From NCBI GenBank assembly GCA_951406725.2, contig OX597819.1, positions 1,674,001-1,738,000 of the forward strand: a stretch of 64,000 bases of DNA, read 5' to 3'. The notes beneath the pieces were generated by a model that was not told where the DNA came from, ran no database searches, and saw nothing but the letters and a program-made list of their open reading frames with translations. Position numbers and translations under genes: made by a program. The DNA is from Octopus vulgaris. Taxonomy: Eukaryota. Below, one piece after another: positions 60,381 to 62,880 of the stretch; position 1 is the stretch's first letter; each line of letters starts with the position of its first letter.

Positions 60381-60663
60381 TCAGGTCGATTAAGAGAGAC
60401 AGATAAAACAAAGATATTGTTTCCTTGTTTATTTCTATGGAACTATAAAATGCAAAGAAGTGAATGTCGTTTTATATTTTCCCGCTTGTGGGTAAATACT
60501 TTGGGTCTTTGTTATGCTAGATTGTCGGTTCATATGCCACTTGCCACTGATCCGTTAAAAGAGTAAATTTTTAGACGGTCTGTATAGTGTCGGTATTTCT
60601 TTAAGCAGACTTATTCAGTTTTAGAGCAAGTCTACAAGTAGTTGAAATTGTCACTGCTTCTAT

Positions 60664-60684
<21 letters not shown>

Positions 60685-60695
<11 letters not shown>

Positions 60696-60939
60696 GAGGG
60701 CATTATACATACATGCCAGCGGGCATTATACATACATGCCACACGCATGGTTTATGTATGATACATTCAGGCCTGCTGATGAGTACGTAAGTATGAAATC
60801 ACTGTGATACAGGTCTATATTTTTAAATGTCTTACTTTGAAAAATTGCACTCAGTGGGATTAGTAATATTTTTGGTAGAAATGACTGATTGTCCCTCTTA
60901 GCGTGTGGCATGTATGTATAATGCCCTCTATATATAAAT
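60685..60939 (+). mobile_element. ~255-bp TIR-bounded non-coding mini-element carrying a hammerhead ribozyme
   Basis: 60901-60939 is the exact reverse complement of atttatatatagagggcattatacatacatgccacacgc. The left arm (60685-60746) has the same sequence with an internal 23-bp tandem duplication. It sits at the end of a (TA)n tract. Confidence 0.8.
60770..60815 (+). ncRNA. Type I hammerhead ribozyme
   Basis: Stem I GGCCUG/CAGGUC; CUGAUGA; stem II GUAC-GUAA-GUAU (GNRA loop); GAAA; stem III AUCAC-U-GUGAU; predicted cleavage after AUA (60809). Confidence 0.9.
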
Positions 60940-61059
60940 TAATATGTTCAATAAGAAATAATTATTTTCGAAATTTATTCTCTTATGAGGTTTTCACGCT
61001 ATCTACCTGACAATTTCTTGTTAAGTTTTCCTTATTAAGTAGTTGTCCTTAATTGCTAA

Positions 61060-61159
<100 letters not shown>

Positions 61160-61499
61160 ATAAATGCATTAATATTCTATTTCTTGATTTGCAATCTTCA
61201 CATCATATAAGAGATTTCATAGTCATATATCTTCATTCTGCGTGTAAGCATGTCAATGTATGCACAATTAAAAGTGCGTGTGTATGAATATCGTGCTGTA
61301 ACAACTGTATGATCCACACCCATACAGACACACATCTATATACACACACACACACATATAGGGATAACAAATAATAAAATTGATTAAGTTTGTGAAAATG
61401 AATATAAAATCTCGCTTTCTCGAATTTTTACATAAAGAAAGAAAAATAGATAAAAATGAAGAGGTTGATAGTGCACTTTAAATCAGTTGAGACTTTCAG

Positions 61500-62880
61500 C
61501 TTATTGAGGCTTTTCAAATCAGAAATGTTTTCACTTGGTCTGTATAGTGTTGGTATTTCTTTAAGCAGACTTATTCAATTTTAGGGCCAGTCTACAAGTA
61601 GTTGAAATTGTCACTGATTCTATTTACTGACTTGTAATTTTCATATCATATAATCTGGCGGGAATGTTGCCATAGTATGGTGTTTCTTCAGCTCCTTACT
61701 GATGCTTGCGGCTGATTTTTGAGCTTTCAACGATTTGTTCCTTAATTTTTGAGCGAGAAAAGTAATGAATTGAAAGGTAGCTTTGAGGGAAGAAAAAATA
61801 TGTCATACTGAAATTGAATGTGTTGAAAAACAGGTTTACATTTTCCTCGAGGTTTCTTTTATATAATCTAAAATGCGATGCACCTAATTACTTTGCTTTG
61901 TTAATCCTGCTCTTTATTAATATCCGGGGATATTTTAGTAGTTTCAAAACGGTCATTTATTGTTCGTAGTCATGTATTGGTCACTATTACGTACATGTAT
62001 GCAGCTGTGCAATATAGGGTGTTCCGTTTAATAAATGGTGAAAGACAAGAAATGACGCAAAGATTGGTATTTAACGGTCGGTCTTTTTACAAAATATGCC
62101 TGTTTCTATACTCCCTGATATCGCATAATTTTACGAAGTGTCTAAGAATACAGAATCTTTTTCATCGACTCCATACTGAATCTGATGGACACATGGAGAT
62201 TGTTTATGAGGTTAAGATATTATGTGACTCTTCCTTTCAACAAAAATACTAGTGGTGGAGAAGACGTTTAAATTTCTCAGACATTCGTTAAAGTTTTGGT
62301 TGAAAATCGTGTATATTTCATGAAATACCGTCTCTTTAAAGTATCCAGTTAAAAGATTTATATAAGACAGTGCAACTATTTGATCCGTTGTTACTTCTAA
62401 TCTGCCTATATGCTTTTCCATCCAAGTTGAAAGTGATTGTTTCCAATATTAGTTATAAAGCTTTGATGATGAAGTTTATCAAGTTTTTATGTTTAAGTAC
62501 CTACCATTCAGATACTATTTAAGTAACGTTTTATGTGTGGTATATCGGTATTAATGCTAGCTAAGTTAATATTAGCTTGTTAATATTAGTATAATTTAGG
62601 ACAGTTGATGGGAAATATTTCAAGAAATCCATGTTTTGTTATACATAACGCGGGGCCTTTCGGCATTCATAGTTAAGAATAAAATCTGAAAAGTAATTTA
62701 GGCGACGTAGCGATGATTGTGGTCTCGAAACTATCGATATCAGTTTTTGATCAGCTGGTCTCAGTGTTTCTATGCATTGATTATTTTGTTCATCTAAAGC
62801 TTTCTGTACAGCCAAGCTTTTATCAATATTTGGAAATCTGTAGTAATTCTTTCCGTCGATCTTGATGTTATATGTATCTA
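61500..62880 (-). mobile_element. Old Penelope-like element, RT domain and downstream linker (probably continuing at 60480-60664)
   Basis: YYRFPNIDKSLAVQKALDEQNNQCIETLRPADQKLISIVSRPQSSLRRLNYFSDFIL..PRYV.NMDFL; FIIKAL.LILETITFNLDGKAY; VALSYINLLTGYFKE; INNLHVSIRFSME..FLD; PTLYRPS(E/K)N. Confidence 0.8.

Follow-up and report, generated by a model that had tools for sequence, protein, structure and literature searches.

The window analysed here, a stretch of 64,000 nucleotides of Octopus vulgaris DNA, carries a 379-bp insertion at 60685-61063. It consists of two arms lying back to back, with the ribozyme-sense 3' ends pointing outward on both. Since (TA)n flanks the copy on both sides, no target-site duplication can be read. 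Aligned to a natural monomer of its repeat family, taken from locus L014 and numbered from the ribozyme cut site, the insertion reads 153 to 92 in inverted orientation, a 3-nt filler, and then 420-479 plus 1-277 in sense. The features are as follows.

60664-60684, no strand: left portion of the (TA)n target sequence.
60685-60746, minus strand: left inverted arm, monomer position ~153 down to 92; the outer end is fixed site A, and both 23-bp units are present.
60747-60749, no strand: head-to-head join, a 3-nt filler.
60750-61063, plus strand: right arm, monomer position 420 via the predicted ribozyme cut site to ~277; the outer end is fixed site B.
60769-60816, plus strand: predicted type I hammerhead motif, with a 7-bp stem I, CUGAUGA, a 4-bp stem II, GAAA and a palindromic stem III.
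60901-60939, plus strand: the "right TIR" of the earlier description; internal, ending at site A and read through by the right arm.
60940-61063, plus strand: tail between sites A and B, ~120 nt, overlooked earlier.
61064-61109, no strand: right portion of the (TA)n target, with (TG)n after it.

A sequence-only reading of this DNA had described a MITE-like element of 255 nt, closed at 60939 by the second of two ~39-bp terminal inverted repeats. Family sequence continues past that point to 61063, so the right arm of the inverted repeat is internal rather than terminal and the proposed element end is wrong. The inverted repeat itself is real, and is perfect (39/39 bp) once one 23-bp unit is skipped; it also drives the strong fold of the 255 nt (z -9.65). 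The duplicated 23-bp unit that had been singled out in the left arm is there, but two units per monomer are the norm in the family (82/88 units counted), and it is the right arm that has lost one. The absence of coding capacity was described correctly: no ORF of at least 100 amino acids overlaps the copy, and none of the 4 flanking ORFs has a Pfam family above cut-off. The join between the arms occurs only once in the 2.8-Gb genome. With a single ribozyme and with monomer positions 278-419 absent, this sub-monomer copy would yield no monomer circle alone, and as a source of circles it is probably inert. The surrounding host DNA includes a duplicated local segment (window 60568-60664, 61174-61210 and 61528-61653), the first copy of which is split by a ~520-bp block of microsatellite plus element with TTCTATT at both sides. 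Elsewhere in the window, at 14891-15326, lie 2.4 tandem copies (97% matched) of a 184-bp unit that we take to be SINE-like.

The hammerhead was placed correctly by the earlier reading, including its core, its stems and a predicted cut after A60809. Stem I pairs 60770-60775 with 60810-60815, or 7 bp if A60769-U60816 is counted; CUGAUGA occupies 60776-60782 and GAAA 60795-60798; and stem II (GUAC-GUAA-GUAU) has 4 bp with a G-U pair at its base. Rfam family HH9 matched this motif at 17.6 bits (E 0.043, in a scan of 161 bases only), against a gathering score of 52 bits, and hammerhead families were absent among the 34 matches of a 6-kb Rfam scan. On its own the 46-nt motif is no more stable than its shuffles (z -1.18), and by folding energy the active structure lies above the ensemble by 3.3-5.5 kcal/mol. 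Falling below the Rfam cut-off and with its active fold above the ensemble, the hammerhead of this family is predicted to be a weak one. Stem I pairs differ on both sides between subfamilies (G-C/A-U, U-A/C-G and C-G/U-A/G-C), according to a script count over 27 motif types that had no shuffle control; to judge from the sequences, these two-sided changes favour a maintained hammerhead structure. A hammerhead from axolotl, in which U-U occupies the base of stem II, is described as cleaving weakly by itself but well when dimeric (PMC7229834), and by analogy the palindromic stem III here would permit dimeric cleavage.

A search of the octopus genome with the window element returned 1198 candidates, of which the 40 scored showed clusters of direct and inverted matches. 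The underlying unit is a tandemly repeated 479-bp monomer with one predicted hammerhead each, dispersed over many chromosomes. Genome-wide, exact hammerhead cores number 338 with the G-U pair and 24 with G-C (control 0); a stem III motif has 584 matches against 5 in the control, and a 15-nt tail motif from the stretch between sites A and B has 1551 against 5. The G-U pair had been attributed to CpG decay in an otherwise intact stem. The G-C loci, however, form a separate subfamily with its own stem I and ~78-92% identity per segment, and an A-U subfamily, also present, carries U at position 11.1. Taken together, the distinct G-C and A-U subfamilies indicate that U11.1 is inherited, and by the 338-to-24 count of cores the G-U pair is the family state rather than decay in the window copy. 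The monomer is poor in GC (164 G+C of 479, or 34%) and, folded as a circle, is far more stable than 40 shuffles (z -7.5). Arrays reach 31 cores and arm lengths range from 38 bp to about 15 kb. The array at L229+L230 (G000:C1:64639500-64655500) holds 31 ribozymes and 30 units of 478-483 bp, with variants common to subsets of units that suggest either later expansion or a mixed template. In every multi-unit arm that we mapped, the sequence upstream of the ribozyme is another monomer and not an ORF. A second hammerhead family, distinguished by a different stem III and a long stem II and likewise found beside TA runs, occurs at L029 (2220-2720, with 463-bp spacing), L039 and L136/L156.

The 77 loci whose anatomy we analysed comprise 35 among the first 100 listed matches to the G-U core, 18 G-C loci, 10 out of 19 additional stem III loci (the 9 left out are distant relatives or chance matches) and the 14 best BLAST matches, the window included. 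L090 and L218 each contained a separate fragment that was excluded, L075 and L076 were treated as a single locus, and 19 tail-motif loci were inspected outside the count. Choosing loci by ribozyme motifs biases the sample toward longer copies. Arm outer ends recur at two fixed places, site A near monomer position 150 and site B near 272, about 120 nt downstream. Two arms are present at 57 of the 77 loci and a single arm at 20 (12 A, 8 B). Where there are two, they always lie back to back, with their ribozyme-sense 3' ends running into (TA)n; the opposite arm order never occurs. The 57 two-armed loci comprise 48 A+B pairs, one doubtful A+A, no B+B, and 8 in which one end lies elsewhere. A+B therefore accounts for 48/49 loci with both ends at a fixed site (p about 9e-14 compared to independent choice), and for 35/36 when the 14 best-BLAST loci are removed. 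The inner ends lie scattered: the 43 simple loci have joins of anything between a 9-nt overlap and a 21-nt filler, and the lengths of the two arms are uncorrelated. The ribozyme cut site is crossed by 75/100 arms, and 39/48 B arms extend past site A. Among the papers that our literature searches listed, we found no account of the A+B shape in retrozymes or of octopus hammerheads, although supplementary retrozyme figures could show inverted copies.

The same footprint is left by Penelope-like elements (PLEs) that encode their own enzyme. One PLE family in this genome has intact 781-aa RT+GIY-YIG frames with a CX4CX2C linker, a motif that has been assigned to Neptune and Nematis (PMC8557442). 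Its copies have two fixed 3' ends ~38 nt apart in (TA)n, and pairs of the A+B type occur at L160 and L137. An autonomous copy at L155:433-5680 has an intact 781-aa frame and a 38-nt tail; an upstream 359-aa frame has no Pfam match, and a motif scan of this copy found no canonical hammerhead. Inverted 5'-truncated copies, a tail and a bias to (TA)n are described as PLE traits (PMC8557442), and the purified protein of a PLE both cuts and extends the two strands of AT-rich DNA, starting at two internal sites, one at each boundary of the "tail", and requiring no ribozyme cleavage (PMC11167929). The hammerhead family displays these insertion traits as well, namely an inverted 5'-truncated arm, a one-end tail and a microsatellite target, as do the autonomous PLEs.

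A PLE-like footprint would also be left if an autonomous PLE with an ORF, yet to be discovered, had given rise to the window copy as a pLTR, either solo or truncated at the 5' end, with the inverted 5' piece that is usual for such copies, and many Xenopus retrozymes do match PLE pLTRs (bioRxiv 10.64898/2026.07.22.740005). Our sampling of PLEs covered 150 of 6136 GIY-YIG candidates scored, which leaves room for such an element, with 50 GIY-YIG loci and 29 loci of a second PLE family checked for homology to the monomer. The pLTR of the 781-aa family has none. Monomer matches were found at 2/50 GIY-YIG loci, both as separate neighbouring insertions, with no homologous pLTR, and in the second PLE family 0/29 loci have a 3' region homologous to the monomer. 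Matches to PLE ORFs near family loci are few; those at L088 and L123 are set off from family sequence by TA runs, and at L261 the join is inverted. Given these results, and the monomers rather than ORFs upstream of the ribozymes, we regard the pLTR as an unlikely source of the window copy. The fallback offered by the earlier reading, a non-autonomous ribozyme-bearing element or a solo pLTR with an inverted end, was thus nearly right as to a non-autonomous ribozyme element with a PLE-type inverted end, and mistaken in that the unit is a tandem non-coding monomer for which no homologous autonomous PLE pLTR was found in the loci checked.

We consider it highly probable that the window element is a truncated two-armed copy of the 479-bp non-coding hammerhead repeat in (TA)n, likely written by a PLE RT/GIY-YIG enzyme. 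The endonuclease would cut both strands of (TA)n, and reverse transcription would be primed from each target strand at one of the two internal start sites, A or B. The template would be an uncleaved multimer or a circular RNA, and both cDNAs would stop at random points before being joined head to head. Weighing against this reading are the lack of a homologous pLTR among the PLEs sampled, a tail longer than that known from PLEs and the weakness of the predicted hammerhead. The frequent crossing of the cut site, together with the B arms that extend past site A, argues for a template other than a cleaved linear monomer; nor do the inner ends lying 15 nt or less from the cut site support one (9 observed versus 6.3 expected). 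Classic twin priming with adjoining inner ends was also rejected, as the inner ends lie within 20 nt of one another at 4/43 loci versus 3.7 expected and arm lengths are uncorrelated.

Several observations bear on the nature of the template. Of 66 variants private to a locus and spanned by both its arms, 19 are shared, 10 of these coming from the subfamily outlier L216, and some shared private variants are present in only part of the units. The two arms in the window differ in their number of 23-bp units. These data, with the subset variants of the 30-unit array, do not support a single monomer circle as template. Genomic copies hold no sign of fixed RNA edits, with 15 A>G against 16 T>C changes. 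In low-depth contigs of run X8, which we guess to be RNA, 18/32 changed places along L014:1186-1672 are A>G and 0 are T>C; the A>G changes are clustered, and all listed ones lie in the ribozyme-sense part. This pattern is a weak hint, from a comparison without matched DNA of the same individual, of edited transcripts (possibly A-to-I hyper-editing). One contig from the runs guessed to be RNA goes back on itself after 480 bases, as a tandem array would do too.

We offer, tentatively and as a possibility that we would rate below even chances, that the PLE enzyme acts as an asymmetric dimer in which one strand is primed only at A and the other only at B, with the two halves loading different RNAs. 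Locus L261:2630-6770 (G000:C1:43429630-43433770) is relevant here, and also supports insertion by a PLE enzyme. A decayed arm of the second PLE family, with an internal deletion and a later insert that is presumably mariner-like, meets a retrozyme relative in head-to-head orientation, and no TA run separates the two. The PLE arm ends at the downstream site of its family, and the retrozyme relative, 70% identical, ends at site A, the upstream one; this pairing, in what is one old locus, suggests that the halves can load different RNAs.

Processes acting on DNA alone, such as fold-back, template switching or unequal crossing-over in TA-rich DNA, could in principle build arrays and inversions with no reverse transcription. 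The variants shared by subsets of units in the long array look as they would after local expansion, and genomic copies have no trace of RNA editing. Such processes nevertheless leave unexplained the dispersal to many chromosomes, the pairing of two fixed 3' ends, one of each kind at a locus, the invariable outward orientation of the arms and the matching footprint of RT-coding PLEs, and we find an origin of this kind quite improbable.

Least credible of all, to the point that we give it hardly any weight, is a MITE, that is, a derivative of a TA-targeting DNA transposon with terminal inverted repeats that captured a hammerhead: the perfect 39-bp inverted repeat, the TA flanks and short hairpin-shaped look-alikes (e.g., L233, L238, L240, L243 and L250) are set against an element that runs 124 bp beyond the right repeat, a join unique in the genome, the same end on both sides in at most 1/57 two-armed loci, and relatives that are mostly tandem arrays with arms of no uniform length. 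The look-alikes themselves (with L246, L255 and L258, eight short, diverged two-armed relatives that lack the ribozyme) likewise pair an A arm in inverted orientation with a direct B arm, at differing joins, as inspected rather than counted. The sequence immediately before site A is also present in the B arm, which reads through it, so that any short A arm will resemble a terminal inverted repeat. Homologues had been proposed as the means of recognising a MITE by its fixed shared ends, and copy-specific inversions had been named beforehand as the outcome that would tell against one; the homologues are tandem 479-bp arrays with copy-specific inversions and no fixed shared ends. A ribozyme between true terminal inverted repeats, which would have been the new claim, is wrong.

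Insertion by a PLE enzyme, the reading that we prefer, has consequences beyond this locus. Mobilisation of retrozymes by PLEs has been proposed from their co-occurrence and from pLTR similarity, and is not demonstrated in the accounts that propose it (PMC7229834; bioRxiv 10.64898/2026.07.22.740005). The retrozyme insertion scars provide genomic support for it. The rule of one A and one B end, with the mixed PLE/retrozyme locus, makes precise predictions for the existing in vitro PLE assay. Should the asymmetric dimer be correct, retrozyme insertions would record the origin of the PLE "tail" and inverted arm, and the PLE family that moves this retrozyme superfamily could be named with no shared pLTR sequence. 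Annotators should be aware that short insertions of the PLE type look like MITEs.

MITEs of TA-targeting DNA transposons are short, non-coding and hairpin-shaped, with TA flanks, and the window copy is like them in these respects. Unlike them, its inverted repeat is not terminal, its ends are not shared and its family is tandem. The 5' inversions of L1 that arise by twin priming involve two primings, point their RNA-sense 3' ends outward and have arms joined by microhomology. In the octopus family, by contrast, both start sites are fixed, and B arms that extend past site A indicate that synthesis of the first cDNA continues beyond the second priming site.

By its sequence-level features the family fits the non-LTR retrozymes and not the MITEs: it has tandem hammerhead units, no coding capacity, low GC and a conserved hammerhead structure, with cleavage and RNA circles here only predicted. 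Metazoan non-LTR retrozymes are likewise described as short, non-coding tandem units with one type I hammerhead each (PMC7229834; bioRxiv 10.64898/2026.07.22.740005), of low GC and strong self-pairing, ranging from monomers to long arrays and co-occurring with PLEs. The octopus unit of 479 bp compares with 150-450 in PMC7229834 and 51-972 in bioRxiv 10.64898/2026.07.22.740005, and the weak base of its stem II resembles that of axolotl HHR_Amex2. We found no description of the two-armed A+B shape in (TA)n for these retrozymes in the text consulted, the words "inverted" and "microsatellite" occurring 0 times in the main text of PMC7229834 and once each in bioRxiv 10.64898/2026.07.22.740005. From EN+ PLEs the family differs in having no ORF, in a tail of ~120 nt versus 30-40 nt, and in showing no pLTR homology to the PLE families that were sampled in this genome. 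With those that carry a Neptune/Nematis-type linker (PMC8557442; PMC11167929) it shares partial tandems, an inverted 5'-truncated arm, a one-end tail and (TA)n targets, and, as our data would imply, two internal start sites downstream of the hammerhead and priming on both strands (PMC11167929).
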